39,989 nucleotides of DNA from a virus (IMGVR_UViG_3300037473_000044); one strand, 5' to 3'; numbered from the stretch's first letter, positions 1-39,989 are shown. Made by a program: numbers and translations. The notes: generated by a model not told the origin, from the letters alone.

Positions 1-127
1 TAAATGAAAAAGCCCCGGTTGGCGCCGGGGCTCAGAACAGGGAGCAAAGAAATGGACCGACACAGTGTAGCACTCCAGTGGGACCCCGATGGCAGCTTAA
101 CGAAGCTGTTTGACGAGCGCGCGGCGG
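1..127. repeat. Terminal overlap, copy 1 (identical to 39863-39989)
   Basis: Read directly: bases 1-127 (taaatgaaaaagccccgg...gagcgcgcggcgg) equal the last 127 bases of the window. Confidence 0.95.
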
Positions 128-6925: not shown

Positions 6926-7747
6926 GTGGCGCGGCCTACGTTGTTTACGCACCCGAAGTTTGTTCGCCTGGTTCATATGCTCGGCTTACCACGGCCTCAT
7001 GTGCTCGGACATCTCGAGCTGATGTGGGCGGTTGGCTACGCCTCTGGCGAACCAGTGCTCGGTGACGAGTTGGATGTCGAACTGGCGGCAGAGTGGACTG
7101 GTGAGCGCGGCGATCTGGTGCGCGCGTTGTCCGACCCGGCCGTGCGGTTGCTTGATCGTTGCGACGATGGACGTTACGCCATCCACGATTTGCACGATCA
7201 CGCGCCACGATACGTGAAAGACCGCTGGCACAAAGAACAGCAGCGCAAAGACTTACAGCGACAGCAGACATGCGGCGGACATGCGGCGGACATGCGGCGG
7301 ACACGAGCCGAAAAATCGGCCACTCCTACACCCGCACCCGCACCCGCACCTACACCCAAAGAACAGCAAAGCGTAGGCGTTGAGCCTGACGGCTCTACGC
7401 CGCCTGACGTCGCGGGCCTTAAGGCGCTCTGGAACACGGGAACATCCGCTCCGATTCCCCAGTGTCGCGAGTTGACGGACAAACGCAAGCGCGCGGCGGC
7501 GGCGCGGCTGAAAGAACGGCCGCTCGAGGAGTGGGTGCCCATCATCGCGCGGATTAACGCCTCGAAGTTTTGCCGTGGAGAAACCGACCGCGGCTCGTGG
7601 GTGGCGACGTTCGACTGGCTGTTGAAGCCCGATACCGCCGTGATGGTCTTGGAGGGCAAGTACGACACGCGCGAACGCGCGCCGGCCCGCGTGCCTGACG
7701 CCGATCGGACACTGGCCTACATCTACGGCCATTCGGATACGCTGTGA
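6926..7747 (+). CDS. Replication initiator / replisome organizer
   Basis: GTG 6926 follows GGAGG. The gene sits directly upstream of, and is coupled to, the DnaB gene. The C-terminus FCRGETDRGSWVATFDWLLKPDTAVMVLEGKYD is typical of phage replication-organizer proteins. DNA-level iterons lie inside the gene. Confidence 0.55.
   Translation: MARPTLFTHPKFVRLVHMLGLPRPHVLGHLELMWAVGYASGEPVLGDELDVELAAEWTGERGDLVRALSDPAVRLLDRCDDGRYAIHDLHDHAPRYVKDRWHKEQQRKDLQRQQTCGGHAADMRRTRAEKSATPTPAPAPAPTPKEQQSVGVEPDGSTPPDVAGLKALWNTGTSAPIPQCRELTDKRKRAAAARLKERPLEEWVPIIARINASKFCRGETDRGSWVATFDWLLKPDTAVMVLEGKYDTRERAPARVPDADRTLAYIYGHSDTL
7267..7303 (+). repeat. 3.4 tandem copies of the 11-bp unit GACATGCGGCG (candidate origin iterons)
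   Basis: Read directly: gacatgcggcg gacatgcggcg gacatgcggcg gaca. The period is not a multiple of 3, so each copy is translated in a different frame. Confidence 0.9.
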
Positions 7748-9916: not shown

Positions 9917-10081
9917 ATGGCGAAGGAATGTATTTTCTGGTTGGTCTGGAACCCGAGCGGCGCCACGCCGACGGTCCGGCATCCGACGCTAGAGGCCGCG
10001 CAACGCGAGCCGGAAGAATGCGGCTATGTCTCTGAAGCCCTCCTAGCCGCTGGCCTCATCCGCGAGGACGATCCCGCATGA
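9917..10081 (+). CDS. Hypothetical small protein (54 aa, below the ORF-track cutoff)
   Basis: I translated it by hand as MAKECIFWLVWNPSGATPTVRHPTLEAAQREPEECGYVSEALLAAGLIREDDPA. It starts 3 nt after the upstream stop and ends in an ATGA overlap with the next gene. Confidence 0.45.
   Translation: MAKECIFWLVWNPSGATPTVRHPTLEAAQREPEECGYVSEALLAAGLIREDDPA
10061..10081 (+). repeat. 21-bp direct repeat CGCGAGGACGATCCCGCATGA, copy 1
   Basis: Exact copy of 10240-10260. It spans a stop/start ATGA junction. Confidence 0.9.
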
Positions 10082-10260
10082 AACGAGCGGTGCCAAGACG
10101 CCATCTCTGGCGGCGCAACGAGCGGGCCGCGTTCAAGGGCGAACGAGCGCGTGACCGTGAATGGTGGAAGCCGCTGGCGCTACTGCCGGAACGCATCAGG
10201 ATTCACGGGCGACGACTGTCGAGACTGCTGACTCGGACACGCGAGGACGATCCCGCATGA
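10078..10260 (+). CDS. Hypothetical basic protein (60 aa)
   Basis: ATGA overlaps at both ends. The gene is exactly bracketed by the 21-bp repeats. Confidence 0.45.
   Translation: MKRAVPRRHLWRRNERAAFKGERARDREWWKPLALLPERIRIHGRRLSRLLTRTREDDPA
10240..10260 (+). repeat. 21-bp direct repeat CGCGAGGACGATCCCGCATGA, copy 2
   Basis: Exact copy of 10061-10081. Confidence 0.9.
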
Positions 10261-10825: not shown

Positions 10826-11524
10826 ATGCCGCATTTTATTCGACCAAACCCGAAGCTACTCAGGGACGACGAGCCCGTCACCCCTCCGGCGACGCCGCCC
10901 CCGCCGACAGGGGAGATGCTCGACATCGAACATGAACTCCGGTGCGAGTGGTGGCTCGGTCACGGCTGCGACATTGCCGCGCTCTACGCAGATGATGGTG
11001 AGATGCAGTGCAGCGCGTGCCGCAAGGACTTCCTCCGAGACGACCTTCTGACGCTCAGGTTGCATGTGCAGGACCGTCGATTGACGCGCGCAGCTGAGGC
11101 GCTGACCGACTCGGGGGAGGCGGCGCGGCCCGCACAGGGGACGACGCCTGAGCTTGACCATGTGCTCGATTGGGTCGGCCGGATGATCGCGCGCATGGGT
11201 GAAGTGGCTAAGACCGATTGGGACGCTGGATACATCACGGCGCTGCGAGCCGTGCAATCGGAGTCGTTTGTCGCGCGCCACAACTCGCACGTCACACAAA
11301 AGCAGTCGGCCCCGGTCCTCCCCCCGGCGCTCACGCGCGAGACGGCAGTAGATGCGCTAGAGAACGTGCGCCTCGCGGCTGCGCGCGGTCGTTGTTATGG
11401 ACACCAAGCGACACCGCAAACGCTGGAGCGAATGGTTGAGCAGAAAGACAAGGCGTTTGACGCGATCTTGAAATATTGCGCGGACGCTGGCGTGGTTGGC
11501 AGCATTCTCCGAGGAAAACCATGA
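10826..11524 (+). CDS. Hypothetical protein
   Basis: ATG 10826 follows AGGAGAAGGA and starts 2 nt after the upstream stop. It is in frame with track ORF 10787-11524. Confidence 0.6.
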   Translation: MPHFIRPNPKLLRDDEPVTPPATPPPPTGEMLDIEHELRCEWWLGHGCDIAALYADDGEMQCSACRKDFLRDDLLTLRLHVQDRRLTRAAEALTDSGEAARPAQGTTPELDHVLDWVGRMIARMGEVAKTDWDAGYITALRAVQSESFVARHNSHVTQKQSAPVLPPALTRETAVDALENVRLAAARGRCYGHQATPQTLERMVEQKDKAFDAILKYCADAGVVGSILRGKP

Positions 11525-12180
11525 CCCGCGAGTCTTTGGAGCAGGCGGTGCGGGAGGCGCTGACGAAGTGTCCGAACTGCGGTCACGAGCCGCACAAGCC
11601 CATGGAGTGCGACAACCTCGGTCGCGACACCATTTGCGACTGCGGGCTCCCGTTCTTTGGTTCAGAGCCCATCGAGGCGTCGCTCGTGGCGACCGTGCTG
11701 GACGTGACCGAACAGCAGATGAAGCGATACGACGAGTACCCGGAAGGGAGCGTGGAGCGTCGGCAGATGGCGTATGCGGTTGGCATCGTCCAGGCCATCC
11801 GCGAACAACTGAAATTGGCACGTCGCCCTAAGCTGGCCCCGGTCGTCGCGGCCCCAGCGGGACAGACGCCGACGCCGTTGCCATGCGCCTGGTGTGGAAC
11901 CGTCCCGCATCCGGCCAGCTACATCATCGAAGAAATGCTGGAGCGCGATTGGTCGAGCGGGGATGTTGCGCGCAGAATGCCCGGCGATTACGGCGTCAAC
12001 AAGCTGGCGCTCGACATGCTCCTCATGGTTGGCCCGCACGACCGCAACGCCTTGATCGGCGATGACATGGACGCTGGGCTCTGTGAAGCCTTCGGCGTGT
12101 CGAAAGGAATGTTCACCAGGCTTGAAAAGGCGTGGCGCGATTCGCTGCCTGCCGCCCCCGCTGGCGAGGAGAGAACGTAG
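11521..12180 (+). CDS. Zinc-ribbon protein with a C-terminal HTH-like (HigA/XRE-like) region
   Basis: ATGA overlap at 11521. The N-terminus carries CPNCGH...CDN...CDCG. The C-terminus IIEEMLERDWSSGDVARRM...CEAFGVSKGMFTRLEKAW loosely resembles antidote-type HTH domains. Confidence 0.5.
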   Translation: MTRESLEQAVREALTKCPNCGHEPHKPMECDNLGRDTICDCGLPFFGSEPIEASLVATVLDVTEQQMKRYDEYPEGSVERRQMAYAVGIVQAIREQLKLARRPKLAPVVAAPAGQTPTPLPCAWCGTVPHPASYIIEEMLERDWSSGDVARRMPGDYGVNKLALDMLLMVGPHDRNALIGDDMDAGLCEAFGVSKGMFTRLEKAWRDSLPAAPAGEERT

Positions 12181-28078: not shown

Positions 28079-28670
28079 GCGTCACGCCGTAGGCGCACTT
28101 GACGCCCCAGAGTCCACGCGAGGACAGCAACGTGATGCTGTTGCCCTTGGTGGCCGCGAACGTCGCGACGTCGGACGTTGTGGTGTCGCCGTTGAAGCCC
28201 GGTGTGTACGTGACGGTGTGTGCCGCGGCGGTCGTGGAATAGATAGTCACTTCCACGCCATCGGGCGTCGCTGCGGTCGGACTCTCGAGCGTCATCGCCG
28301 CCGCTGTCGCCTTGTCCAAGAAGATCAAGGTGTCGTAGGTCGGCGGGACGATTGCCCCGCTGGCGCCATACGACACGATGTTTTTCTTGTAGAGGCTCGG
28401 GTTGTTGGTCCAGCCCGGCTGCGGAGACGGGAACTCCGTCGCCGTGCCGGCCGTGACCCCCGCCAGAATCGGATGGGCACGCTGTACGCCGCCCTGCTTG
28501 CCGCCACGCTGGACGGGGATGAGCCCGCCAGCCGTGGCGACGTCCGTCTGGACCATGTATTCGCCATCGACCAACCAGACCCAGCCCACGGCGTTGCCCG
28601 TGGTCGAGGTCGGATAGATCGTCTGGTCGTTGAAGCCGCATGCCGCGGCCAGCGTCGTGTTGAGCGCCAT
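28071..28670 (-). CDS. Thr/Ala-rich capsid-associated protein (decoration or head-fibre candidate)
   Basis: ATG 28670 forms a TAATG overlap with the coat-gene stop and is in frame with track ORF 28071-28697. Confidence 0.55.
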   Translation of the reverse strand: MALNTTLAAACGFNDQTIYPTSTTGNAVGWVWLVDGEYMVQTDVATAGGLIPVQRGGKQGGVQRAHPILAGVTAGTATEFPSPQPGWTNNPSLYKKNIVSYGASGAIVPPTYDTLIFLDKATAAAMTLESPTAATPDGVEVTIYSTTAAAHTVTYTPGFNGDTTTSDVATFAATKGNSITLLSSRGLWGVKCAYGVTLG

Positions 28671-29950
28671 TAGCTTGCACCTCCGGCGACGACGCACGCC
28701 CAGTCAGGCCGATACGCCAGCCAGCCATAGAAGCAGTCCAGACGCGAAATCTTCTGGTCCGACTGCGCGTTGTACTGCCGCACGTAGCGGGCGCTCCAGC
28801 CCGTCTCCGCGTCGCTCACCATCGCCACATCGGCGCCCGGCAGATCGCTATCCGCGTCCACCATGCCGAGCACGAAGGCTTCGCGGTTGTAGACGAGCCC
28901 CTGACGAGTCGCGGTCGCCGTCCAAGTGCCCGAGCCGGTCGTGATGGTCGAGCCGAGCGGGATGATCGGCGCGTTGTTGACCGGCAGCGCGTCCACGTTG
29001 GCAAGCGCATTCGGAATCGGTCCCGACCCGACCGCGATCAGCGGCGGCTGGAACTGAATCGTGGCGTCGACACCCGAAGACGTCGTGGCCTGCGTCACCG
29101 TCAACTGCATCAACTGGCCCGTGGACGTGTAGTTCTGGGGGTTGATTTCGTAGACGTTGGCAATCGTGAACTTGTCCCCGACCTGATAGGTCGTGGCCGA
29201 ACTCGCGTTGCCGTCCGTGACGATGCTCGTCATGCCATCCGAGAACGTCGTCTGGTTAACGAGCGGTGTGAACGTGGTCGATGAGCCCGTGGTCCGCTGC
29301 CAGGTGTTCTGGTCCATGTACCACTCGTCGATACCCAGCCCGTTCTCGCCACTCGAGAACTGACCCGTGCGCCAGTTCTTGCCGATGGACGAGGCCGGAT
29401 TGAAGATCGTGGCGTTGGAGCCCACGAGCGTCGCGCTCATGTTCGGGGAGATGACCGCCACGAGGTTGTCGTCTGGCACCGCGACGTTACGGAGCTTGGT
29501 GACGGCATCCAGATAAGTCTGGATGGACGTGGGGGTCGTGCCAGGTGTGCCGACCGAGTGCGCCACCAGCGGTGAACAGCGCGTCAGCCCATCAAAGTCG
29601 ATGGTGTTGGCGAGCTGGACCGACGCCGGCTTGATGTAGCGCGAGCGCACTTCCTCGACCGAGAACGTGGCGTCGAACGTCGACCACGAAATCCCGATGT
29701 TGGCCTGGTCGGTGATGTTGAACCGGACGGTGACGTCGTTGATACCCTGCTGTTGGAACGCCTGCCCCTTAGTGGTGGCATAGCGCTGGGGGAGTCGCAG
29801 CGAGAATCCCGATCCCACCTTCGCACCCCCGGCCTTGAAATCGGCCGAGTACTTGCGGGTGACGTTGGCGCCGAACTTCAGTGAGTTCTGCGCGATGCGG
29901 GAGACTTCCTTGACAACCCACGTCGGCGTGACGAAGGCGTTTGCGGCCAT
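28670..29950 (-). CDS. Major capsid protein (P22 coat-like)
   Basis: The ORF is 426 aa and directly follows the scaffold gene. The N-terminus FVTPTWVVKEVSRIAQNSLKFGANVTRKYSADF resembles the P22 coat-protein family pattern. Confidence 0.75.
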   Translation of the reverse strand: MAANAFVTPTWVVKEVSRIAQNSLKFGANVTRKYSADFKAGGAKVGSGFSLRLPQRYATTKGQAFQQQGINDVTVRFNITDQANIGISWSTFDATFSVEEVRSRYIKPASVQLANTIDFDGLTRCSPLVAHSVGTPGTTPTSIQTYLDAVTKLRNVAVPDDNLVAVISPNMSATLVGSNATIFNPASSIGKNWRTGQFSSGENGLGIDEWYMDQNTWQRTTGSSTTFTPLVNQTTFSDGMTSIVTDGNASSATTYQVGDKFTIANVYEINPQNYTSTGQLMQLTVTQATTSSGVDATIQFQPPLIAVGSGPIPNALANVDALPVNNAPIIPLGSTITTGSGTWTATATRQGLVYNREAFVLGMVDADSDLPGADVAMVSDAETGWSARYVRQYNAQSDQKISRLDCFYGWLAYRPDWACVVAGGAS

Positions 29951-29964
29951 GAGAGCCTACTTCT

Positions 29965-30999
29965 CTAGGCTCGCCGGGCCTCCCGCGCTTTTCGGTCACG
30001 CTCGTTCATGGCCGCAATGTACTTGGGGCCAAACGGCAGATCATCCGGCGGGGAGGACTCAGGAGCCATCACCGAAGGTCTCACCGGCTTAATGAGAGGC
30101 TTCGCAGTGGTGTGAGTCAGCACTGTCTCGGGGCCGGAAGAAGCCGATGACAGGCGTGCGGTCAAGCGTCCGATTTCACGAGCGGCAGCAATCGGCGTTG
30201 CCTGACGCGCCAACTGCGCCGCATCGTCAGGATGCGTCAACAGGTGGTGCAGCAACTCCGCGCTGAGATCAGGGTCGTTCTGGGCCTCGGCCGCGATCAG
30301 GTCGAGGACAGCCCGAGGGTAAATGGTCGTATCAGCGGCGAGATGTTCGAGAAAGCCGGGATGCTTCTGTTCCAGTAGCTCCTTCGCGGCCTGCGCATGT
30401 GAGGCGCGCTCAGTCTCGGCACGGCGGGCGGCGTCGCGCGCTTCCCGCTCCTCAAGCCGCTTGTCCGCAATGAACGCAGCCAGTGCGGCCTGATGCGCGC
30501 CGTAGGCATCATCGACCCCGGCCGCTACGAAGTCGTCAAACTTCGGCGCCTCGGGGTCGGACTGATACCGCTGGACCAGTTGCAGATAGGTGGGCGCTGT
30601 CGAGGTGTGCGCGGCCGGCACGGATGCCGGCGTTGGTTGCCTCAGCGCCTGGAGTTCGGCTTCGCGCTCGGCGGCTCGACGTTCGGCCTCTTCGGCGCGG
30701 CGTTCGGCGTCGCGTTGTTTCGCGATCGCTTGGTTGATCTTGGCTTGATGAGACTTGCGTGGGTCGCCATCGAGTTTCGCGGGCTCGTCGGCCGGCTTGG
30801 GCTCAGCGGCTTTCGCCTTGAACGTGCCGTCCGGGTTACGCTCACCGGCTGGCGCTGTAGGCGCTTCAGGCTCGGCCGCTTCCTCGGCCTTGGTGTCTGG
30901 CTCCGCGAAGCCCGCAGCCGCACGAATATTCTCTTCCGTGTCGTTGGCCGTGACCGTGACGCGGTTTTCCGTGACCGATGTGATGGGGGAGTTCATCAA
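29965..30999 (-). CDS. Scaffolding protein
   Basis: The ORF is 344 aa, Ala/Glu/Arg-rich and coiled-coil-like. It lies between the portal region and the coat gene. Confidence 0.65.
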   Translation of the reverse strand: MMNSPITSVTENRVTVTANDTEENIRAAAGFAEPDTKAEEAAEPEAPTAPAGERNPDGTFKAKAAEPKPADEPAKLDGDPRKSHQAKINQAIAKQRDAERRAEEAERRAAEREAELQALRQPTPASVPAAHTSTAPTYLQLVQRYQSDPEAPKFDDFVAAGVDDAYGAHQAALAAFIADKRLEEREARDAARRAETERASHAQAAKELLEQKHPGFLEHLAADTTIYPRAVLDLIAAEAQNDPDLSAELLHHLLTHPDDAAQLARQATPIAAAREIGRLTARLSSASSGPETVLTHTTAKPLIKPVRPSVMAPESSPPDDLPFGPKYIAAMNERDRKAREARRA

Positions 31000-31004
31000 G
31001 TCAG

Positions 31005-31280
31005 TTATTTGACGGATGCTGTCAAATTATCGACACCTTGCGCGATCTTGTCAAGGCGTCGCAAGCGAATGCCGTCCCAGCGATATAGATTTTTCAGGTC
31101 TGCGCTCGCATACGGGCCAGGTTTCGCGCTGTGATCGGAGAACACGAGCTTGCCGTTGGCGTCCCGCTCCACGCGGCGGTCAATCATCGCCAGCGTATGG
31201 CGTTGCAGCACGGGCGGCGGCTCAGGACGAATGCCTCGAGGTTCCAGATTGAGCGCCTTGCGGCGTTTCGCGTCACCCAT
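31005..31280 (-). CDS. Hypothetical protein
   Basis: The ORF is 91 aa and overlaps the portal stop by 8 nt. Confidence 0.5.
   Translation of the reverse strand: MGDAKRRKALNLEPRGIRPEPPPVLQRHTLAMIDRRVERDANGKLVFSDHSAKPGPYASADLKNLYRWDGIRLRRLDKIAQGVDNLTASVK
31026..31054 (-). promoter_or_regulatory. Sigma70-like promoter candidate upstream of the scaffold and coat genes
   Basis: On the minus strand, TTGACA (31054-31049), a 17-nt spacer and GATAAT (31031-26). It lies inside the 3' end of the 91-aa ORF, about 27 nt upstream of the scaffold ATG. Confidence 0.4.
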
Positions 31281-33573
31281 TGGCCACGTCTCTGTTCGGA
31301 TCGGGCGGCGGTGGCGTCGTGGCGAGCTCGTACGCGTGCTCGTGCGCCATGCTTTCCCGCTCTATCTGCCGCCTGTGTTCAGCGTCCGCGCCTTCGTCCT
31401 CGCGTTCGGCTCCATGCACGGTCTTTGCGGCGTCATAGGCGTTCTGCGCCATCAACTTCTGCTGCTCGTGCTTGATGCCAATAAGGTCGGCGATGAGCAT
31501 GACTTGAGTTTTCATCTCCTCCATGCCGGCTTTGATTTCCGCGACCGCAATCTGCGTCTCGGCCTGAATCCCCGCCACGCGGATCTTCGTGGCGTCGGCT
31601 GACTGCTGCGTCAGCGCCTTCACTTGGCCGTCCTGTTGCGCCTTGATGACCTGAACTTGGGCGTTGGTCTCCGCAATCTTCAGCTTGGCCTGGTTGTCGT
31701 CGGCCAACTGCTGAAGCTGCTGCATCGCCGCTTGCATCTCGGCCATCTTGGCCTGCACTTCGGGCGGCAGATCCGCGGCCTCATCGTCCACACCGGGCGG
31801 CTTGATGCGGTCTGCGATCTCGTCAGACTTCGGAATGCCCATCGACCGCACCCACAGGTCCGCGAACCGTGGCACCAGCTCAGGCGCGGCCTGCGCGAGC
31901 GCGTTCATGCCGGCGAAGGTCTCGGCTTGGAGCGTCTGGCGCGACTTCCCGACGTTCACAATCACGCCGTATTGGCCCTCAGCCAGCATGTGCGCCATCG
32001 GTTCTGGGCCACCCATACCGATCGCGGACTTGACGCGCTGCATCATGCCGGTTGGCGCCGGCTGCGGCTGGCCGTCCTTGTCCTTCACGAACGGCGCGTT
32101 CAGAATGGCCCAGTCTTCAGAACCATCTTTGCTGATGATGCGTTCTTTGCGGCCGGACCGGTCATACACTGGCGGAATGAGGTCCACCACCACAATGCCC
32201 GTATGCCGGATGGCTCGAGCATGATGCTGCAACCAACCACTCGTGCCTTGCTGTGATGCCGCTTTAAGTTCTTCGATGGCCTTCCCGCTGCGATCGTTCG
32301 GATTGACGTGGCCCAGCGCGGCGTCTGGTACTCCTGTTGTTGAACGTATGAAGTTCGTAAACAGGCCGATCATCTCGGCGTAGGACCGGATCTCAGGGTT
32401 GTCGTTATTGCGAGTCGGGGGCGGCAGAAGTTGCGGCCCCGTTCCCGGCGTCATGGCGTTATATTCGAGATACGGGAAGTTGCGCGTGTTGGCTTGGTTC
32501 CAGAAGCCCTCGTACCCTTGAAATTGTCCGGCGATACCGAGCCACGGGGACACCGACGCTAGGCCGATCTTTTCGGCTGCGCTACTCACCATGAAGTTCA
32601 GCATGCGGCCAGCTGAAATCGATGGCTGCACCATGCCTTCTATGATGACTTCGCCGCCGACGTTGTACTTGTTCCCGGAGTCTTCGATGATCGGAATGAA
32701 ATGGCCGTCCCATTCCTGAGGCTCGTCCAACCATTCGAGGCCGTTCATCTTGGCCCACATGATGGTCCGCTGATTCACGGTGCGACCATCAACCGTCACC
32801 GGCTTATAGACCGCATACCAGTACTCAGCCACCCGGTAGAACTTGCCGCCAGCGGTCCCGTCTGCGTTCTTCGTCTCGATAACCCAGTGCTTCTGCGCGT
32901 CTCCTAGGCCTTCAAGAATCTCACTGTCAGTCGCTTTCGCGAGCTTCGATGTCCCGAACTCACGCAAGTAGTCGGCTTCAAGTATCTCGGCGGTGATGAA
33001 GCCGTAATCTGGCTCCCAGAACCCGCCATTTGGCTGCCACTTCGGCAATGGGTCGAGGTAGACCGAGAAGCCGTTTTCGATGGGCTCGATGCGGATGACC
33101 TGATCCAGCCCTGCGCGCTCGTTGGCGTACGCCTTGTTCACGCGCCAGTAGCCGCGGCCACAGCCCACCATCCGCTGAAAGCCCCACGAATACACGTCGT
33201 CAGCGTGGCTGTCCGTCTGGATGGCCCGAATGAGGCCCGCGATGACTTCGGCGGTGTCTTTGTTGGCTTTGCCGTCCTTGGCCGTGATGGTGATCGCTAG
33301 ATCGGCGTCGTGTTCCTGGTTGACCACCTGTGCGATCGGCTGGTCCAGCGTCCGCATCGTGAGCATCGGACGGGCAGGGACAGCAGGAGAACCCGTTGAC
33401 GCGTTGGCCGGGAGGCCCGCCCGCGCCAACTTGGCGTCTTCGGTCCACTGGTCGCCGGCTTGGAAGCGGAGCGCTTCCAGTTCCCGCGCCCGCTGGTCGT
33501 GCTCGGTCTCCGCGATGAACTTAAATTGCGCGAGCGCCGTGGCGTGCAGCGAGGTCAGGTCGGAGGCGCCCAA
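31273..33573 (-). CDS. Portal protein (P22-like)
   Basis: The ORF is 766 aa and downstream of TerL. The N-terminus ELEALRFQAGDQWTEDAKLARAG...RPMLTMRTLDQPIAQVVN is typical of P22-type portals. The only available start is a TTG at 33573 with no visible SD. Confidence 0.8.
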   Translation of the reverse strand: MGASDLTSLHATALAQFKFIAETEHDQRARELEALRFQAGDQWTEDAKLARAGLPANASTGSPAVPARPMLTMRTLDQPIAQVVNQEHDADLAITITAKDGKANKDTAEVIAGLIRAIQTDSHADDVYSWGFQRMVGCGRGYWRVNKAYANERAGLDQVIRIEPIENGFSVYLDPLPKWQPNGGFWEPDYGFITAEILEADYLREFGTSKLAKATDSEILEGLGDAQKHWVIETKNADGTAGGKFYRVAEYWYAVYKPVTVDGRTVNQRTIMWAKMNGLEWLDEPQEWDGHFIPIIEDSGNKYNVGGEVIIEGMVQPSISAGRMLNFMVSSAAEKIGLASVSPWLGIAGQFQGYEGFWNQANTRNFPYLEYNAMTPGTGPQLLPPPTRNNDNPEIRSYAEMIGLFTNFIRSTTGVPDAALGHVNPNDRSGKAIEELKAASQQGTSGWLQHHARAIRHTGIVVVDLIPPVYDRSGRKERIISKDGSEDWAILNAPFVKDKDGQPQPAPTGMMQRVKSAIGMGGPEPMAHMLAEGQYGVIVNVGKSRQTLQAETFAGMNALAQAAPELVPRFADLWVRSMGIPKSDEIADRIKPPGVDDEAADLPPEVQAKMAEMQAAMQQLQQLADDNQAKLKIAETNAQVQVIKAQQDGQVKALTQQSADATKIRVAGIQAETQIAVAEIKAGMEEMKTQVMLIADLIGIKHEQQKLMAQNAYDAAKTVHGAEREDEGADAEHRRQIERESMAHEHAYELATTPPPPDPNRDVANG

Positions 33574-33643
33574 GGTCAGGTGAGCGCTAGGGTAACACGT
33601 TTCGTCAAAAACTTGACAGGCCTAGCTCAAATTATTGACAGGC

Positions 33644-35038
33644 TTACCACCACTGACCGGAGATAGGCGGCGGCGCGGCCACGACCTTGCGCGGAGGCTC
33701 GGGCACGGCAGACCCGAAGTTCAGCTCAAGGTACTCGGCGCAGTTCTGCCCGTGCTCATACCACCCGTCTTTCTTCGGCCGTCTCACTTGCTTGTTGCCG
33801 ACACTGACGAGGTTTTCGTCCCAGACGTAGCCGGCCTCAAATCCATCCGCTAGGAACTTATCAGGGACCGTCGCTTGGTCAGAAATGGTCAGCCACCGCT
33901 CTGGGTCGCTGTTGATAGCGAACGCCTCGGCACGGTCGGCGGCGCGTTTCCGCATCTGTGCGGCCATGCGCTCCACCATCGCCAGTCGCACGGCAGGACT
34001 ATTGGAGTCGCCAACATAGACCGGCTTGATGCCCTTCTCGCGCAAGGTCTTCACGGCGCCTGCTGTCCCGTGCGAGGTGTCGGCGGCTCCCGCCGGGTCG
34101 CAGCATTCGCGGATCTGGATGGGGTTCGGGAACCACTGGCCGCGATGCGTCAGCACGATGTCGAGAAAGTCATCCAGATACAGCGACTGCCCCAGAATCC
34201 CACCCAGAAACCTCACCTGACCGAGCGCGGAGACCTGACGGAAGATCGCGCAGGGATGGTGCTTGCCGAAGTCCAGCGCCATCTCGAGCGGGAGACGCGG
34301 GTCGTATTCCACTGGCACCTCATGCACGTTCCGCATGAAGGCGCCTTTGTAGACCGGCTCGCCAGTTACGTTCATGCCGCGCTTGCCGAGAATGACGCTG
34401 CGGTGTTTGGCGTGTTCAGGCGGGTAGGCCAACAGCGCGGCCCGCAATAGGTCTGGCGGCAGGTTGTGCTGGTTGTCGTAGATGCTGATCGAGTAGTAAA
34501 CGCGCCCCTTGATCCGGTTGTCCTCGGGAAACTGCTGGGCCAGCCAGTGCGTGACGTTCGGCGGGTTGGGGCTGAAGATGAGTTGATGCGGATAGCCGGG
34601 TTGCCGCAACCGCAACCGCAGTTCCAAGCTGAAGTCCTCGGGGAGTTCTTCGGTCTGGTCGTTATAGATGCCAGCCACGCCCATGCCGCGCATCTTGCTG
34701 TAGCGGCTCAGTGCGTCTGGCGACTTCAGTCCGTAGGCGTAGCACTTCGACCCGTTACTGAAGTCGTAGGCCAGCTCCTTCGCGTTCCACGACGGTGTGG
34801 CACCAGCGGCCCGACAGACTTCCTCAAAGGCTGGCCTGACTTTGGTCTGCGTCTCCCCGTCACCGTATCGGCCGATCCACCAATGAATGCCGTCGTGGGC
34901 GTGCAGGCTGTTAAAGACCTTCCACAGGCACGCGGTGGTCTTGCCGGATGAGAGCGCGCCTTCTAGGCAGATTTCGGGCGACTCGTCACGCATGAAGCGT
35001 GCGATAGGCCCGCTCCACACCATGCGGACTTCACTCAT
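33644..35038 (-). CDS. terL: Terminase large subunit
   Basis: Walker A is GALSSGKTT. The size (464 aa) and position between TerS-like and portal genes fit. The start is an ATGA overlap with the upstream gene. Confidence 0.85.
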   Translation of the reverse strand: MSEVRMVWSGPIARFMRDESPEICLEGALSSGKTTACLWKVFNSLHAHDGIHWWIGRYGDGETQTKVRPAFEEVCRAAGATPSWNAKELAYDFSNGSKCYAYGLKSPDALSRYSKMRGMGVAGIYNDQTEELPEDFSLELRLRLRQPGYPHQLIFSPNPPNVTHWLAQQFPEDNRIKGRVYYSISIYDNQHNLPPDLLRAALLAYPPEHAKHRSVILGKRGMNVTGEPVYKGAFMRNVHEVPVEYDPRLPLEMALDFGKHHPCAIFRQVSALGQVRFLGGILGQSLYLDDFLDIVLTHRGQWFPNPIQIRECCDPAGAADTSHGTAGAVKTLREKGIKPVYVGDSNSPAVRLAMVERMAAQMRKRAADRAEAFAINSDPERWLTISDQATVPDKFLADGFEAGYVWDENLVSVGNKQVRRPKKDGWYEHGQNCAEYLELNFGSAVPEPPRKVVAAPPPISGQWW

Positions 35039-35322
35039 TTCGTGGGTGGCGCGTCGTGGTACTCGTGGACAACTGTCGTGCGCGTGTCGACCTGTCCGCC
35101 CAGCGTGACGTCCTGCGGCGGCCGGCCAAAGCCGCGGTCCAGCAACAGGCCGATCGCCATCATGCGGATGCGCGGGTCGTCGGATGTGGTGCCGAGCGTA
35201 TGCAGCTCGTCCACGTAGGTCTTGCCGTCCTCGCCACCGAGCTTGCGGATGTATTCGGCAATCGACTGGCCGGTGCTTGGACGCCCCTTGGGATTGCCGG
35301 ACTGGCCCTTCTGAAACGGCAT
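35035..35322 (-). CDS. terS: Terminase small subunit-like protein
   Basis: MPFQKGQSGNPKGRP is an N-terminal motif common in small terminase / DUF5681-type proteins. The gene is coupled to terL. Confidence 0.6.
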   Translation of the reverse strand: MPFQKGQSGNPKGRPSTGQSIAEYIRKLGGEDGKTYVDELHTLGTTSDDPRIRMMAIGLLLDRGFGRPPQDVTLGGQVDTRTTVVHEYHDAPPTK

Positions 35323-35340
35323 TGTTTTACAGGGAGGCGC

Positions 35341-35649
35341 TTACTTGCGCTTCTCCAGCCGCTTGACGGCCTGCTCGAGCTTGCTTACGCGGGCCTTGAG
35401 GGCGCGGATGTTCCGAAGTGTGGCGTCGGTTGGATTGCGCTTCTTAGCCGCACGAATAGCCGCGTCCATATAGGCGTCCCTCGCTCGCGCCGCAGTAATA
35501 GCGGCCATACTCGGTGCCGCCCCGTTGATGGAGCACCATTCGATGAACCGCATGCCTGGCGCGATCTTGCCCTTGCGCTTATCCTCCAGAAAGGACTTCA
35601 CCGCAAACGCGTCTAACGTGTCGAGGCGGGTCCGCTTGCGCCTCTTCAT
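35341..35649 (-). CDS. Hypothetical basic protein
   Basis: ATG 35649 (MKRRKRTR) forms an ATGA overlap with the upstream stop and is in frame with track ORF 35341-35685. Confidence 0.5.
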   Translation of the reverse strand: MKRRKRTRLDTLDAFAVKSFLEDKRKGKIAPGMRFIEWCSINGAAPSMAAITAARARDAYMDAAIRAAKKRNPTDATLRNIRALKARVSKLEQAVKRLEKRK

Positions 35650-35906
35650 GGCTTCACCGCCTCTTGGGCGCGGACATAGAGACAATCGGCCTTATGCGGC
35701 ACGTCAGCGTGCTCCGCGCAGTCAACGCCGCAATAGTGGCAAGTTAAGCCGTCTCGATACGGGCCACTCGCTGCAATCTCGCGCAGCACCTCGCGTCGGC
35801 CTTGTTCAAGCCAGCGCTCTAACGTCTCAGCGTGACGCGGAGATTCCTCGCGCATCGCCGCCAGTAATCGCCGGTAGTCACGGTCGAAATCAGCGGCCTC
35901 GCTCAT
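35646..35906 (-). CDS. Hypothetical protein
   Basis: The ORF is 86 aa with a Cys/His cluster, CHYCGVDCAEH...HKADC. Confidence 0.5.
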   Translation of the reverse strand: MSEAADFDRDYRRLLAAMREESPRHAETLERWLEQGRREVLREIAASGPYRDGLTCHYCGVDCAEHADVPHKADCLYVRAQEAVKP

Positions 35907-35920
35907 GGTGTCCAGTCTAC

Positions 35921-36208
35921 TCAGGCGACGGCAGGGAACTCATGCTCAGCGGCGCACGTGGCGCACCATTGATTCTGGGGCTCAATACCAATCACGCCAG
36001 ACACCGGGACGCACGGCAGATGGTTCGCGGCGTTGTATTCCATTTGCACGCGATGCCGGAGTTCGCGCTCGACATCGTCTAGTTCTAGGCGGGCACGCTC
36101 GCCGGCCACGTACGAAAGCTCTATCGCTTGAACACACGTCGTCCTAAGCTCTCGCCAGCGCGCATCCAGCGTCTCACTGGACGCAGCCTTGATTTCAGTC
36201 CTGGTCAT
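35921..36208 (-). CDS. Hypothetical protein
   Basis: ATG 36208 (MTRTEIK) is in frame with track ORF 35921-36253. A possible 34-aa GTG ORF (36205-36309) ends in an ATGA overlap with it. Confidence 0.45.
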   Translation of the reverse strand: MTRTEIKAASSETLDARWRELRTTCVQAIELSYVAGERARLELDDVERELRHRVQMEYNAANHLPCVPVSGVIGIEPQNQWCATCAAEHEFPAVA

Positions 36209-36335
36209 GCGGCCACCCTGATTTGCCTGAACGCCAGCCAATCCGCGATGCACGCTTCTAACGCCTGCGTCGAACAGGCGCTCAGCACGGTCCCGTCAAT
36301 GACGAACACGTAGCGGTGCGGCGTCAACGCGAGCC

Positions 36336-36364
36336 ATTCTACGCTGGTGTCAAATTTTTGTCAC
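36336..36364 (-). promoter_or_regulatory. Sigma70-like promoter candidate at the head of the late-strand operon
   Basis: On the minus strand, GTGACA (36364-36359), a 17-nt spacer and TAGAAT (36341-36336). It sits in an AT-rich island between the attP arm repeats and the first late-strand ORFs. Confidence 0.4.
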
Positions 36365-36387
36365 GCAGAGGCTCAGGACTGATGCCG

Positions 36388-36411
36388 TGTCGTCCCAGTG
36401 CGTCGTCCCAG
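36388..36411 (+). repeat. Pair of direct GTCGTCCCAG repeats (candidate integrase arm-type sites)
   Basis: Copies are at 36389-36398 and 36402-36411, 13 bp apart start to start. Confidence 0.7.
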
Positions 36412-36423
36412 CCTGTAAGTGTT

Positions 36424-36495
36424 TGCGAAAAGGCGTGTTCCAGACACCGATACCGCTTAGAAGGCCGGTGCTCTATCCAACTGAGCTACGGGCGC
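36424..36495 (-). tRNA. Degenerate tRNA-Arg(TCT)-like element with an intact 5' half only; candidate attP core
   Basis: Minus strand from 36495 reads GCGCCCG TA GCTC AGTTGGATA GAGC A CCGGC CTTCTAA, then GCGGT ATC GGTGT CTGGAAC ACGCC TTTTCGC. The 3' anticodon stem, T-loop and 3' acceptor strand do not fit a functional tRNA. Confidence 0.55.
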
Positions 36496-37694
36496 GTGGT
36501 GGAATTATCTAAGGGAATACGCGCTTTTCGGCCTGTCCAGCCTTGTTTGACGCGTTCCGCGAACCGCTGCGACTTGCTCATGTTTTCTAACGTTTTCTCA
36601 TGCGGTGTCTGGGATGTCGTCCCAATATGTCGTCCCAACGCTTCCGCCTTCTGCTTGAGCACGCGCGCTGTCGCGTTCAGCCGATAGCGCTGACTCGTCT
36701 TGATGCCGGCGTGCTGTAACAGGGCCATCACGAGATAGTCGTCCCCCGTGAGGTCAAACGCAATCGTCGCGAACGAGTGCCGCAAGCTGTAGGGGCTCGC
36801 GCCCGTGACGCCCACCCGCTTGGCGGCGATATGAAACGTCCGCCACATCGACGAATTGGAGAATGAGCCCCAGCCATCGACGTCGCGCAAGTCTTCAAAC
36901 GCCTGCACGGCTTGGGGCAACAGCGGCAGGATGCTCGCGCCCGTCCCTAGTCCCTTCGCGCGGCCGCGCACGCGTAACGTCGCCGCGGCGAAGTCCACAT
37001 CGCCCGGCTCCACGCGCTTGAGCTGACTCGCCGGCAGGCCCGTGTAGGCCAGGATACGCAGCCGAATCTTCGTCACCGATCGCTCTTTGCGCGGATGGCC
37101 GGCGTTCTTGGTCTGCGTCGCGCCCCAGTCCAGAACCTCATCGAAGATGCGCTGAATCGTGGCGTAGTCCAGCTCGCGCGGCACGGCGGACGGCTCAGGC
37201 GCTTCTTCCACGTCACGAACCGGGTTGTGGGCTCGAGATCCGTCCAGTACTGTGTAGAGATTCGACAAGGCCCGAAGACGCAGGTTGACCGTATGCGGCG
37301 CCAGTGGTGGTTTGTCGCCACGCGGGGCCATCAGCCAGGCGTCCCGCTGCGTGCGAATGTCGGCTGACGTGATTCGGTCCCGTTGGCGTTTCTTGAACAC
37401 CGCCACCCACGCCTGAATCTGCCGTTCCCGATCCTTATACGAGGGCATCGCCCGTACGGCTTTGAGATACGTCTCCGCGTCCGCCTTGAACATGCCGCGG
37501 GTGGCCCGCTCACTGCGCTGGACGTGCGTCTTCGCTTGCGCGGCTTTCCGCCAGGCCACCATCACGGACAGCTTCGTGTCTTTCGGGAACTGGCGATACA
37601 GCTTCGGCCGATGCCGGCCTTGACTGACCGCCGCGCGGTAGCCGGCACCGTGCCGGTAGATGCCCGGCGGGAGCCTGCTTACGCCCATGCCCAC
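36486..37694 (-). CDS. int: Tyrosine integrase
   Basis: The C-terminal catalytic region carries SLRHSFAT (HxxR box) and LLQHAGIKTSQRY (catalytic Tyr). The start is GTG 37694 or ATG 37688. The stop TAG (36486-36488) lies inside the tRNA-like element. Confidence 0.85.
   Translation of the reverse strand: MGMGVSRLPPGIYRHGAGYRAAVSQGRHRPKLYRQFPKDTKLSVMVAWRKAAQAKTHVQRSERATRGMFKADAETYLKAVRAMPSYKDRERQIQAWVAVFKKRQRDRITSADIRTQRDAWLMAPRGDKPPLAPHTVNLRLRALSNLYTVLDGSRAHNPVRDVEEAPEPSAVPRELDYATIQRIFDEVLDWGATQTKNAGHPRKERSVTKIRLRILAYTGLPASQLKRVEPGDVDFAAATLRVRGRAKGLGTGASILPLLPQAVQAFEDLRDVDGWGSFSNSSMWRTFHIAAKRVGVTGASPYSLRHSFATIAFDLTGDDYLVMALLQHAGIKTSQRYRLNATARVLKQKAEALGRHIGTTSQTPHEKTLENMSKSQRFAERVKQGWTGRKARIPLDNSTTRP
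36614..36638 (+). repeat. Pair of direct ATGTCGTCCCAA repeats (candidate integrase arm-type sites)
   Basis: Copies are at 36614-36625 and 36627-36638, 13 bp apart. They have the same orientation and core (GTCGTCCCA) as the pair at 36389-36411, and lie inside the integrase 3' coding region. Confidence 0.7.
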
Positions 37695-37846
37695 TTCACA
37701 AAGCGGACGAGCCCGTAGAGAACGACGAGGCCGACGATAGCAGCCACGATCAGGGCGCCGATGTCGTCAGGCAACAGCGCCCAGAGAATCGTGAGCGCGA
37801 GGAGCCCAACTAGGCCGACAACGACCAGAAGCACCAAGGACACCAC
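37679..37846 (-). CDS. 55-aa two-TM membrane protein (GTG start, below the ORF-track cutoff)
   Basis: I translated it by hand as VVSLVLLVVVGLVGLLALTILWALLPDDIGALIVAAIVGLVVLYGLVRFVKWAWA. It starts immediately after the upstream TGA and its stop overlaps the integrase start. Confidence 0.4.
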   Translation of the reverse strand: MVSLVLLVVVGLVGLLALTILWALLPDDIGALIVAAIVGLVVLYGLVRFVKWAWA

Positions 37847-38218
37847 TCAGCGCAACACTTTCAGCTTCTTAATGAGTTCCTTAGCGCAGGCGTTCAATGC
37901 CCCCTTACCAGACATGCGGCCGGATCGCACGACAGAGGCCGCAACGTCTCCGGCTTTATCCATCGCAATCACGGCGGCTGCCGCTCCGCCCAGCGAGCTT
38001 TCTTGCGCGATGATGACGGTATAGTCCAGTGTCGCATCAGTGCGCGGTTTGATGTCGATTTGCACGCGTTCGCCGCTGGCGGATTCTCGCAAGCTTTCGA
38101 TGAACTTCGCCTTGAGATTGCTCTCGCCAACGACCGCAACGGTCAGGACTGGAACGCCCTGCGCGTGCACGGAAGCGCCCAGCAGAATGAGCGCCATGGT
38201 AATAACGACTCGATTCAT
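37847..38218 (-). CDS. Secreted protein with a signal peptide (prophage accessory gene / moron candidate)
   Basis: The N-terminus MNRVVITMALILLGASVHAQ-GV has an A-x-A-type cleavage site and no lipobox Cys. The gene lies between the repressor and integrase genes. Confidence 0.65.
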   Translation of the reverse strand: MNRVVITMALILLGASVHAQGVPVLTVAVVGESNLKAKFIESLRESASGERVQIDIKPRTDATLDYTVIIAQESSLGGAAAAVIAMDKAGDVAASVVRSGRMSGKGALNACAKELIKKLKVLR

Positions 38219-38280
38219 TCAGTTCCTACCTCGCTCCGCGACAGATCGCCGCAATAACAAGCTCTACGACTTGCATTTGT

Positions 38281-38751
38281 TCAGCGTCCAGACGTTTTAG
38301 GCCGAGGTGAATCCGCGCTTCGATCGCGGTCGCGGCTAAGCGCGCGGGCGAGGGCGGCAACTGCATCGGCAACATCCGCCCGCCATGTGCCTTCTTGGGC
38401 GTTGGCTTCGCTGATAACACGATCGAGAAGAGACGAGCCTTGCCCGATTTCTCTGTCATGTCCGGATTCACCTTCCGGACGGGTAAACAAGTCTTCGAGT
38501 TCAGCGCCACACGCGACGGCGAGACGCGCCAATGTGTTCACTTGCGGCTTCAAGTTACCGCCGCTGAGGATCTTTTGGAGTTGGCCGAGCTTCATGCCGG
38601 CAGATTTGGCTACTTCCGTGCGCCGCCCATGCTCTTTTCCGACCAACCGCCGAAGATTCACCAGCCATATCGGATCGTCGTTCGTATCCGCCACGCGCGG
38701 AGTATAGCGACTCGGCCAGACTTCAAAACGCGCTAAGTCCATACGCCACAC
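38281..38751 (-). CDS. CI-like repressor (XRE-family HTH, no S24 peptidase domain)
   Basis: The HTH is RRTEVAKSAGMKLGQLQKILSGGNLKPQVNTLARLAVACGAELEDLF. The gene is divergent from a Cro-like gene. The start may be the ATG at 38742. Confidence 0.7.
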   Translation of the reverse strand: MWRMDLARFEVWPSRYTPRVADTNDDPIWLVNLRRLVGKEHGRRTEVAKSAGMKLGQLQKILSGGNLKPQVNTLARLAVACGAELEDLFTRPEGESGHDREIGQGSSLLDRVISEANAQEGTWRADVADAVAALARALSRDRDRSADSPRPKTSGR

Positions 38752-38778
38752 ATAGATGCAGTGTATTTTCGTAGGAGT

Positions 38779-38801
38779 GGTGATTTCGGTTGCAAATCAC
38801 C
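38779..38801. promoter_or_regulatory. Operator candidate: perfect 8-bp inverted repeat GGTGATTT-N7-AAATCACC
   Basis: Read directly in the 56-bp divergent region between the CI-like and Cro-like genes. It overlaps a TTGCAA hexamer at 38790-38795. Confidence 0.55.
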
Positions 38802-38807
38802 ATTCAT

Positions 38808-39125
38808 ATGAGCACAATACAACTCATGAAAGCGCCTGACACCCTTAGAGAGTGGCGAAAGCGCCGCAAATGGACGCAAGACCAACTCTCCTCGTTGTCT
38901 GGTATCGACCAAACAACGATTTCGCGACTTGAAACCGACCCGTCTCCGAATCCGACTCCTGACACCCGCAAGCGACTGGCAAAGGCGCTGGGAATCGCCC
39001 CGTCCCGTCTTCGATTCACTGCCCCTGAGCCGGTAGCAAGTGTCGGCCGGGGCTCTGACAAACCGGGACACACCGCTCACCGCACCCTCGTGGGCGACCG
39101 TCGCTCCGATGAGGCGGTGCGCTGA
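38808..39125 (+). CDS. Cro-like XRE-family HTH regulator
   Basis: The HTH is LREWRKRRKWTQDQLSSLSGIDQTTISRLETD. The start is ambiguous between TTG 38790, ATG 38808 and ATG 38826, and no clear SD is present. Confidence 0.65.
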   Translation: MSTIQLMKAPDTLREWRKRRKWTQDQLSSLSGIDQTTISRLETDPSPNPTPDTRKRLAKALGIAPSRLRFTAPEPVASVGRGSDKPGHTAHRTLVGDRRSDEAVR

Positions 39126-39325
39126 TGGACTGCCAGCAGGGCGTCTTCAAGGGCCGCATGGGCGCGTCGCAGCCGCATGTTCAGCCGGCCCACCTGATTG
39201 ATGCGGTGGGTCAGCAGGCGAATGGCTTCGCGGTCGCTCATCGGCAGTTCAGCCTTGGCGTTCTCCGTCAGCAGTTGGCGGGCGAGGGTCAGTAAGCGCA
39301 TGGCGAACACGATGCCCTCCCGCAT
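39077..39325 (-). CDS. Hypothetical helical protein encoded antisense within the early-right operon
   Basis: The ORF is 82 aa with a strongly G/C-ending codon pattern when read by hand, unlike the opposite-strand frame. Its 3' end overlaps the Cro-like gene by 49 nt in convergent orientation. Confidence 0.5.
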   Translation of the reverse strand: MREGIVFAMRLLTLARQLLTENAKAELPMSDREAIRLLTHRINQVGRLNMRLRRAHAALEDALLAVHQRTASSERRSPTRVR

Positions 39326-39662
39326 GGTCGACGCGCCACGACAGATGCTTTCCGCTCGCTTAGGGAAAAGCGAAAGCCGCGAGGCGACCGGAAAAATTCT
39401 TTCCGATGACGAGATCGCCCGCGAATTTGGCCGGGATATTCAGCGGACGTTGGAAGCGGCTGGCTATACACCACAGGAAGCCGCGCACCTGCTGCGCTAC
39501 GCGAATCAGAGCCCGATCTCGAAGCTGATCAATCCGACCGAGCCGCCCGCGCTCGCCAAGCTTCTGAGCCTGCCAGGGATGCGCGCGGCCTGGATCGAAG
39601 TGCTGGCCGATCGATGCCCTGAATACCGGAAGGTGGTCACCCTCGAAAGGAAGCGCGCATGA
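39324..39662 (+). CDS. Small HTH-like regulator (CII/Ner-like position)
   Basis: The start is ATG 39324 or ATG 39345, and the upstream part of track ORF 39198-39662 looks non-coding. YTPQEAAHLLRYANQSPISKLIN is HTH-like. Confidence 0.5.
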   Translation: MVDAPRQMLSARLGKSESREATGKILSDDEIAREFGRDIQRTLEAAGYTPQEAAHLLRYANQSPISKLINPTEPPALAKLLSLPGMRAAWIEVLADRCPEYRKVVTLERKRA

Positions 39663-39865
39663 GCGACGCCCTGATGAACGCCGCCGACGTCGTGCGGATG
39701 CTCGGGATCAGTCGTGCCACATGGCAGCGCCATCTTCGTGAGTATGCGCGGCTGTTTGAAGTCGCCCGCCCGATTGGTCAGCGCCGGTATTCGCGCGCAC
39801 GGGTGGAGCAGTACGTGAGCGCCGAGACGATGGCGCGATTTGGGAAGACGCAGCGCACGGCCTAA
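39659..39865 (+). CDS. Excisionase-family / AlpA-like DNA-binding protein
   Basis: AADVVRMLGISRATWQRHL...RRYSRARVEQYV fits the HTH_17 excisionase pattern. The start is an ATGA overlap at 39659. Confidence 0.65.
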   Translation: MSDALMNAADVVRMLGISRATWQRHLREYARLFEVARPIGQRRYSRARVEQYVSAETMARFGKTQRTA

Positions 39866-39989
39866 ATGAAAAAGCCCCGGTTGGCGCCGGGGCTCAGAAC
39901 AGGGAGCAAAGAAATGGACCGACACAGTGTAGCACTCCAGTGGGACCCCGATGGCAGCTTAACGAAGCTGTTTGACGAGCGCGCGGCGG
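39863..39989. repeat. Terminal overlap, copy 2 (identical to 1-127)
   Basis: Exact match to 1-127. It starts at the TAA stop of the excisionase-like gene. Confidence 0.95.
39873..39894. terminator. GC-rich hairpin AGCCCCGG-TTGGCG-CCGGGGCT (also at 11-32)
   Basis: An 8-bp perfect stem lies 8 nt after the excisionase-like stop. There is an A5 run on the 5' side, which is a T5 tail when read on the minus strand, and no T tract on the + strand. Confidence 0.4.

Follow-up and report, generated by a model that had tools for sequence, protein, structure and literature searches.

Why would a temperate phage carry the 5' half of a host tRNA gene at the end of its integrase gene, when phages that integrate into tRNA genes typically carry the 3' half, and how could such a site rebuild the gene that it interrupts? 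The question arises on the minus strand of IMGVR_UViG_3300037473_000044, where 36495→36424 reads as a 72-nt tRNA-Arg(TCT)-like sequence (GCGCCCGTAGCTCAGTTGGATAGAGCACCGGCCTTCTAAGCGGTATCGGTGTCTGGAACACGCCTTTTCGCA). An initial annotation of this DNA had described it as a tRNA-Arg(TCT) mimic with a perfect 5' half and a degenerate 3' half, and every detail that it listed is present in the sequence. In what follows, the window means the whole stretch of DNA analysed (39,989 nt), over which all positions are numbered. Our answer is that the phage most likely inserts “backwards” into a host tRNA-Arg gene.

The phage genome and its attP region

The window is a complete circular genome of a P22-like temperate phage. 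Its first 127 bases exactly repeat its last 127 (repeat D1, 100% identity), from which it follows that the genome is a circle of 39,862 bp and that the site is seen in its unintegrated, attP configuration. The G+C content is about 63%, and Pfam searches identified a portal (31273-33573) and a coat protein (28670-29950), both of P22 type, along with a large terminase (33644-35038). Other phage genes encode a DnaB-like helicase, a cytosine methylase, a CI-like HTH protein and a small HTH_17 protein, the last two of which form the lysogeny module together with the integrase. Judged solely by its family name, the HTH_17/MerR-type protein is a candidate excisionase or regulator of this module. No deposited phage in INPHARED gave a megablast match to 30000-39989.

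Two sets of repeats were observed elsewhere in the genome. Four tandem 11-nt units (GCGGACATGCG; 7264-7307, plus strand) lie within the ORF 6926-7747, upstream of the DnaB-like helicase gene (7744-9060), and resemble iterons, as if an initiator gene contained a replication origin. An exact 21-nt direct repeat (CGCGAGGACGATCCCGCATGA) occurs at 10061-10081 and 10240-10260, with a spacing of 179 nt.

The att region itself recurs in independent data: it is identical in a separate 41,952-nt JGI contig (L001) and agrees with five Logan contigs from three runs, the assemblies that hold it being L001-L004, L007 and L008. Because the same integrase and att region are found in independent assemblies, the feature is real. 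Its components are collected in Table 1.

Table 1. Features of the attP region and of the remaining genome, by window position
Feature	Position	Strand	Details
127-nt terminal repeat	1..127	.	assembly overlap, exact copy of 39863-39989
Sigma-70-like promoter match GTGACA-17-TAGAAT	36336..36364	-	promoter scan, 10/12 matches; consensus match only
P' arm	36389..36421	-	block CACTTACAGGC (36421-36411), then two TGGGACGAC (36410-36402, 36397-36389); +47/+60 from the anticodon loop
Degenerate tRNA 3' half (positions 42-72)	36424..36454	-	GG, TATC, GGTGT-CTGGAAC-ACGCC, TTTTCGC, A
attP core identity block	36455..36499	-	tRNA positions 1-41 (36495-36455) and CCAC (36499-36496)
Anticodon loop CTTCTAA	36457..36463	-	putative 7-nt overlap (crossover) region; flanks CCGGC and GC-GG
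Tyrosine integrase (int)	36486..37694	-	402 codons from GTG; database version P0001, 400 aa; Pfam PF00589, 4.3e-09
-10-like hexamer GATAAT	36504..36509	-	overlaps the D-N codons at the end of int; tRNA position 1 lies 8 nt downstream
P arm	36616..36637	-	two tandem TGGGACGAC (36637-36629, 36624-36616), in the int 3' coding region; -174/-161 from the anticodon loop
68-aa HTH_17/MerR-type protein	39659..39865	+	Pfam PF12728, 5.1e-06

An alignment of the integrase with 8-9 relatives identified the invariant catalytic-type residues (R, K, LRHS and Y337). Past the catalytic tyrosine, a tail of about 65 residues encodes both the P-arm repeats and a short overlap with the tRNA: the last 10 nt of int, stop codon included, are tRNA positions 1-10, and the TAG at 36488-36486 is made of positions 8-10, as had been noted at the outset. 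Exact copies of TGGGACGAC number six in the genome, and four of them flank the core, all on the same (minus) strand, in two pairs whose members are 13 nt apart. These two pairs are placed like arm-type sites and are candidate Int-binding sites. Around the anticodon loop, CCGGC and GC-GG form imperfect inverted core-type sites. The initial annotation had called the element an attP candidate; with an integrase beside it, a 41-nt block of identity with host genes and arm-type repeats on both sides, its assignment as an attP core of the anticodon-loop type adjoining a tyrosine integrase is well supported at the level of sequence.

Within the element, the 5' acceptor strand, the D-arm, the 5' anticodon stem CCGGC and the loop CTTCTAA are those of a textbook tRNA, and the departures begin where they had been described. 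The 3' anticodon stem is poor (GC-GG, one base fewer than the host GCCGG), the T-arm position is occupied by GGTGT-CTGGAAC-ACGCC, and the 3' acceptor strand TTTTCGC retains three terminal Watson-Crick pairs and one G-U pair. The Rfam tRNA model aligns over exactly 36424-36495 on the minus strand with mismatches confined to the 3' half, at 21.4 bits (E = 0.23) against a gathering score of 29; in the scan of the whole window nothing reaches that score. ARAGORN finds zero tRNAs in the whole window, and the minimum-free-energy fold of the element is not a cloverleaf (z = +0.23). We therefore reject a functional phage tRNA, the outcome that the initial annotation had named as contrary to its reading.

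The 3' half is nevertheless tRNA-shaped beyond chance, degenerate as it is. A 5-bp stem in T-arm register together with at least 3 terminal acceptor pairs occurs in 30 of 79,916 31-mers of the window, and 14 of 31 positions equal those of the host 3' half (p ~0.03). Most likely, this half is the decayed relic of a full tRNA copy.

Identity with host genes and orientation of the core

The 5' half (positions 1-41) is found exactly in at least 119 genome stretches of a species-representative genome collection, and 117 of these at least 119 matches run on as intact tRNA-Arg(TCT) genes. Judged by this comparison, the 41-nt identity is no chance match. Among the matches listed, its carriers are mostly MAGs of Acidobacteriota (Vicinamibacterales) and Steroidobacteraceae; soil Acidobacteriota of the Vicinamibacterales type are the likely hosts of the phage. 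Beyond position 41 the hosts continue with CGG(G/T)GGTC... and the phage with GGTATC, and identity ends two bases after the anticodon loop. Searching the host genes, as the initial annotation had advised, thus places the identity over the 5' half (41/41) and its end at position 41, in agreement with its view that the conserved part is the 5' portion up to the anticodon loop. The opposite outcome, host identity over the 3' half, did not occur, since that half agrees at 14/31 positions only, and no host tRNA 3' half occurs anywhere else in the window. Upstream of position 1, the phage CCAC also precedes the tRNA in 9 host loci, 8 of them labelled Acidobacteriota, among the matches listed.

Contig ends in the Logan assemblies, which were built with k = 31, agree independently with these limits. 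In all three runs, the int-side contigs terminate at tRNA position 26 and those of the P' side begin at position 12. Such ends are what a 45-nt repeat (-3..41) would give if another molecule in the samples also carried it. The break points fit the presence of attB in those samples; attP and attB alone explain them equally well, so they are no proof of integration.

How the site came to hold the 5' half is best seen from its relatives. A scan of IMG/VR with the integrase alone retrieved zero relatives, and a scan with an alignment query retrieved 14, of which L140 only carries the 5' part. Among the homologues of the integrase that were looked up in their contigs, most show, after the int stop, the reverse complement of the tRNA 3' part, which spans the CCA end through the 5' strand of the anticodon stem. 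The tRNA is Arg-TCT in L129 and L135, Arg-CCT in L130-133, L136 and L147, Arg-CCG in L144/145 and another tRNA in L141-143, and in L137, L148, L154 and L157 the 3' part is co-oriented with int. The premise that the 3' portion is the usual arrangement accordingly holds for relatives of the same integrase as well as in the literature, which calls it typical.

The arms of these relatives are homologous to those of the window. In L129, CACTTACAGGCAGGGACCAC..TGGGACAAC stands in place of the window's CACTTACAGGCTGGGACGAC..TGGGACGAC, and homologous P' arms are also present in L130 and L136. Between the loop and the first P' repeat lie 46 nt in the window, L129 and L136 and 47 nt in L130, and the arm-to-loop distances of L136 (-174/-161 and +47/+60) equal those of the window. 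On the int strand, L129 reads TCGGC-TTAGAAG-GCCGA where the window reads CCGGC-CTTCTAA-GC-GG. The loop thus holds the same position between the same arms in opposite orientation, which is good evidence that it is the overlap region. Because the arm-to-loop spacing is conserved even though the relatives carry the 3' part, the core was flipped in place in the lineage of the window. With its core inverted relative to int and the arms, the phage would enter the tRNA gene in the opposite sense and so have to carry the 5' part.

The closest relative, L128 (integrase P0002, 78% identity), comes from another run and has the same layout, with int ending ...ACA ACG CGC CCG TAG and its stop within the tRNA. 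[quoted passage not shown] L129, a conventional relative, likewise retains a degenerate 5' part of the right length; we read the 3' half of the window and the 5' part of L129 as relics, only the half that rebuilds the gene being kept under selection.

As a separate observation, L005 (Acidobacteriota MAG JBDTNQ010000060.1) has an extra ORF rich in Cys/His motifs between int and tRNA-Arg(TCT) (11228-11667), and its int-to-tRNA distance is about 540 nt, compared with about 10 nt in the free-phage relatives.

Integration and expression of the rebuilt tRNA

We consider it highly probable that 36389-36637 (minus strand) is the attP of a temperate P22-like phage whose integrase recombines with a host tRNA-Arg(UCU) gene, with crossover in or near the anticodon loop, and that its core is inverted relative to its relatives, hence the carriage of positions 1-41 and an attR tRNA that is transcribed from phage DNA. 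Integration by this phage and the exact position of the crossover are what we infer from this arrangement. The integrase would recombine attP with the host gene within or beside the 7-nt anticodon loop. The predicted attL would then join the host promoter and host 5' half to the degenerate phage 3' half and the packaging/late genes, leaving a dead tRNA (host upstream, positions 1-41, then GGTATCGG...). The predicted attR would run from int into the phage-borne 5' half and the host 3' half, giving an intact tRNA sequence (int tail, positions 1-41, then CGGGGGTC...). That the rebuilt tRNA would lie directly downstream of int, behind phage DNA, had been anticipated and follows from the geometry.

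Searches of genomes, JGI metagenomes and IMG/VR returned no attL or attR of this phage, and these collections may lack its lysogens. The attR-specific pattern (int tail, core and host-type CGG) had 0 matches in JGI metagenome contigs, where the phage-type core was matched only by the ambiguous contig L134. By tblastn, this integrase lies upstream of the tRNA in none of the 119 host loci listed, and the only integrases detected in those loci were two distant ones in the usual orientation. The expected order of a 5' fragment with native upstream sequence, an element and an intact tRNA was seen for an insert in another contig, CAVUZL010000014.1, and not for this phage. An ordinary attP elsewhere in the genome was rejected, as the genome is without any 3' tRNA fragment.

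If the rebuilt tRNA stands behind phage DNA, its transcription has to be accounted for. It would be transcribed either through the int transcript or from the -10-like hexamer GATAAT in the last int codons, which may be a candidate promoter element supplied by the phage. In host tRNA-Arg genes, TAnnnT boxes, often TGnTAcAcT, peak 8-10 nt before position 1 (38/115 loci), and L128 has GAGAAT at the equal distance of 8 nt, a conservation that could instead reflect protein coding. GATAAT begins with G rather than T, and neither a TGn extension nor a correctly spaced -35 accompanies it; with neither of these in place, the hexamer and int read-through both stand as options. TGGACA was rejected as its -35, being 24 nt away and too far for sigma-70. 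Downstream of attP, the sigma-70-like match of Table 1 lies just past the P' arm and is directed into the operon of small ORFs and terminase.

The degenerate 3' half may have a role of its own. The initial annotation proposed that its hairpin and T-run act as a terminator, and in a fuller form this would mean that the 3' half is kept as an intrinsic terminator of int transcripts and, at attL, of host-promoter transcripts before the late operon. A 5-bp stem (GGTGT/ACGCC) followed by TTTT is indeed present, and in L139, a phage with an unrelated integrase, the corresponding position is occupied by an 18-bp hairpin of high stability, so some block there may be useful. The proposal nonetheless fared poorly: the terminator scan makes no call at the 3' half, 16 of 200 shuffled sequences fold at least as stably as the hairpin (-9.7 kcal/mol, z = -1.45), the stem is followed by just four U, and a T-run is missing from the corresponding spacers of L129, L130 and L136. 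We regard termination as an improbable function of this half.

A further reading, which we judge a little less probable still, accepts the attP and supposes that the attR tRNA is silent, the phage tolerating or exploiting the loss of tRNA-Arg(UCU) or relying on a second host copy. Two points speak for silence: high-GC hosts use few AGA codons, and in the promoter scan the sequence ahead of the tRNA start yielded no convincing full sigma-70 promoter. Phages that integrate without rebuilding the tRNA are moreover known, through tRNA-dependent lysogeny (PMC10865867). Those phages, however, share about 10 bp with attB and bring their own tRNA, of which this genome has none, and a perfect 5' half of 41-45 nt would be needless if the gene need not be rebuilt. 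In the window as in L128, a -10-like hexamer also stands in the register of host promoters, the CAVUZL010000014.1 insert supplies a TAGACT box that resembles the native TACACT, and archaeal 5'-half integrases are reported (PMC8371274) to express the rebuilt tRNA from the integrase promoter. Transcription of the attR tRNA from phage DNA is the reading we prefer.

It is very improbable that the element is a decaying phage-encoded tRNA-Arg pseudogene with no part in integration and that the real attP lies elsewhere. Such a pseudogene would account for the tRNA architecture that the 3' half retains beyond chance and for the end-to-end alignment of all 72 nt with the Rfam model. Decay that sets in exactly past the anticodon stem after 41/41 identity is, however, the signature of an att identity block; arm-type repeats flank the element, in the relatives, tRNA fragments occupy the corresponding site and keep the spacing, and the genome holds no second tRNA fragment. 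We give almost no credence to a tRNA 5' half that is host DNA from aberrant excision or an assembly chimera peculiar to this contig, because, even if tRNA repeats are frequent sites of contig breaks and false joins, and the Logan contigs are broken at this site, separate assemblies (L001 and the five Logan contigs) agree, the layout recurs in L128 from another run, and the int reading frame and stop codon depend on the tRNA 5' half; an assembly artefact was rejected on the independent assemblies and L128.

Other 5'-half sites and known systems

The 5'-half arrangement is found at the same tRNA in other elements. In L140, an IMG/VR phage with 38% integrase identity, int is followed by 45 nt, tRNA-Arg(TCT) positions 1-43 and then unrelated DNA. 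A neighbour-joining tree places the window and L128 as sisters (200/200 bootstraps), nested among conventional members, and groups them with L140 in 0/200 bootstraps. L139 (IMGVR_UViG_3300010362_000049) encodes a 471-aa integrase with no detectable similarity and shows the same 5'-half arrangement, with arm repeats of its own (AAATCGATCAC, two per side). On this sequence evidence the flip is recurrent, with the window and L128, L140, and L139 as separate cases.

L139 also presents a structure of its own at 2270-2349 (minus strand), where the anticodon arm is repeated in inverted orientation (GCACCGGCCTTCTAAGC-CTGAC-TTTAGAAGGCTGGTGC) directly after the tRNA 5' half. The resulting 18-bp hairpin has an energy of -38.3 kcal/mol (z = -3.9), and the inverted copy means that the overlap sequence is present in both orientations. 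The hairpin might serve to block transcription, or it might record the way in which cores are inverted.

An integrated counterpart may exist in CAVUZL010000014.1, a 1.35-Mb contig of an Acidobacteriota MAG (loci L089, 1576-1616, and L019, 5557-5633, both on the minus strand). At 33616→33576, native-looking upstream sequence with a TACACT box leads into tRNA positions 1-42 and then non-tRNA DNA. About 20 kb on, on the same strand, an intact tRNA-Arg(TCT) (13633→13557) follows different DNA with a TAGACT box. The ~20-kb insert looks like the predicted attL...attR structure of a 5'-half element, and it would supply a promoter look-alike (TAGACT) resembling the native TACACT. No integrase was visible in the ~4 kb examined of the ~20 kb. 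An FG-GAP/DUF11 surface-type protein is encoded at the attL end of the insert.

The JGI metagenome scan with the phage-type core AAGCGG had a sole match, L134 (Ga0306920_100597538, 1633 nt), which has the AAGC|GGT junction of the phage. There, the remnant of a LuxR-like gene and a promoter-like region precede tRNA positions 1-41 (976-1009, minus strand). Past position 41 come GGTGAACG..., tandem GTGGCAAAC repeats and small ORFs in unrelated DNA. L134 is either the attL of another 5'-half element or another attP, between which a 1.6-kb contig is ambiguous.

Integration with the 5' half of a tRNA gene is rare but already described, both in bacteria and for the archaeal pTN3-like integrases. The bacterial example is an integrative element with reversed target-gene orientation (Zhao & Williams 2002, J Bacteriol 184:859); as its title and the works citing it present the case, recombination with the tRNA 5' region is considerably less frequent. 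Like the window, that element uses a tyrosine integrase and the tRNA 5' rather than 3' part, so that the rebuilt gene comes to lie behind element DNA and an element-supplied promoter is needed. Unlike the element as its title and citations describe it, the window is a complete tailed-phage genome, its int stop lies inside the tRNA, and its relatives with the 3' layout reveal a flip in place.

According to PMC8371274, which cites Cossu et al. 2017 and Krupovic & Bamford 2008, the attB of pTN3-like integrases of Thermococcales is the tRNA 5' half; an uninterrupted tRNA is restored and expressed from the int promoter, and the arrangement is “seldomly encountered in bacteria.” As in the window, the site is the tRNA 5' half and int lies directly upstream of it. 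Those integrases are archaeal and “suicidal,” with att inside int and the gene split on integration, whereas in the window only the last 10 nt of int overlap the tRNA and there is no sequence relationship to them. Because this overlap lies upstream of the proposed crossover, int would stay whole.

Conventional tRNA att sites have a common core of 30-45 bp that includes the tRNA 3' half (PMC10865867), the rebuilt gene usually remains on its own promoter (PMC10865867, PMC8371274), and the anticodon stem-loop corresponds to the lambda-type core (PMC8371274). The window shares with these sites a layout of the heterobivalent type, with arm repeats on both sides and int adjacent, and an identity block of 41-45 nt whose boundary is at the anticodon stem-loop. 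Its block, however, covers the gene between the loop and the 5' end, whereas the conventional block covers it between the loop and the 3' end, as it does in L129, L136, L147 and others, which are ordinary conventional members.

The tRNA-dependent lysogeny of mycobacteriophages (Guerrero-Bustamante & Hatfull 2024, PMC10865867) likewise involves integration into tRNA genes that departs from the 3'-half rule; in those phages, about 10 bp are shared with attB, the tRNA is not rebuilt and a complementing tRNA gene is carried. The window differs in its 41-45 nt block, in the tRNA sequence that would be rebuilt and in having no phage tRNA gene; with such a core and no tRNA gene in the genome, tRNA-dependent lysogeny was rejected.

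Of added interest, as far as sequences can tell, is that a comparison of related integrases shows the core to have flipped in place on more than one occasion. We tentatively extend this to the possibility that inversion of the core between fixed arms is a recurrent move, made at least twice in this family and a third time in an unrelated integrase, always at the tRNA-Arg(UCU) of soil Acidobacteriota. Such a move would switch the half that is carried and might place an AGA-decoding tRNA under a promoter in the int codons, and so under prophage control. Integrases that are related, share the same arm geometry and in some cases the same tRNA-Arg(TCT), with either the 3' or the 5' part, form a natural series. 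This series addresses how the att site of a tyrosine recombinase changes orientation, whether directionality is set by the overlap sequence or by the arms, and how a host tRNA severed from its promoter stays expressed.

Practical consequences concern annotation. Tools for finding prophages and islands would overlook the ends of such elements or set them wrongly if displaced 3' tRNA fragments are all they seek, and tRNA detectors can be misled by tRNAs that are half real. In L129, ARAGORN calls a 93-nt “tRNA-Ala(agc)” over the conventional attP (3613-3705, minus strand), a spurious call made up of a real Arg-TCT 3' part and a degenerate 5' part.
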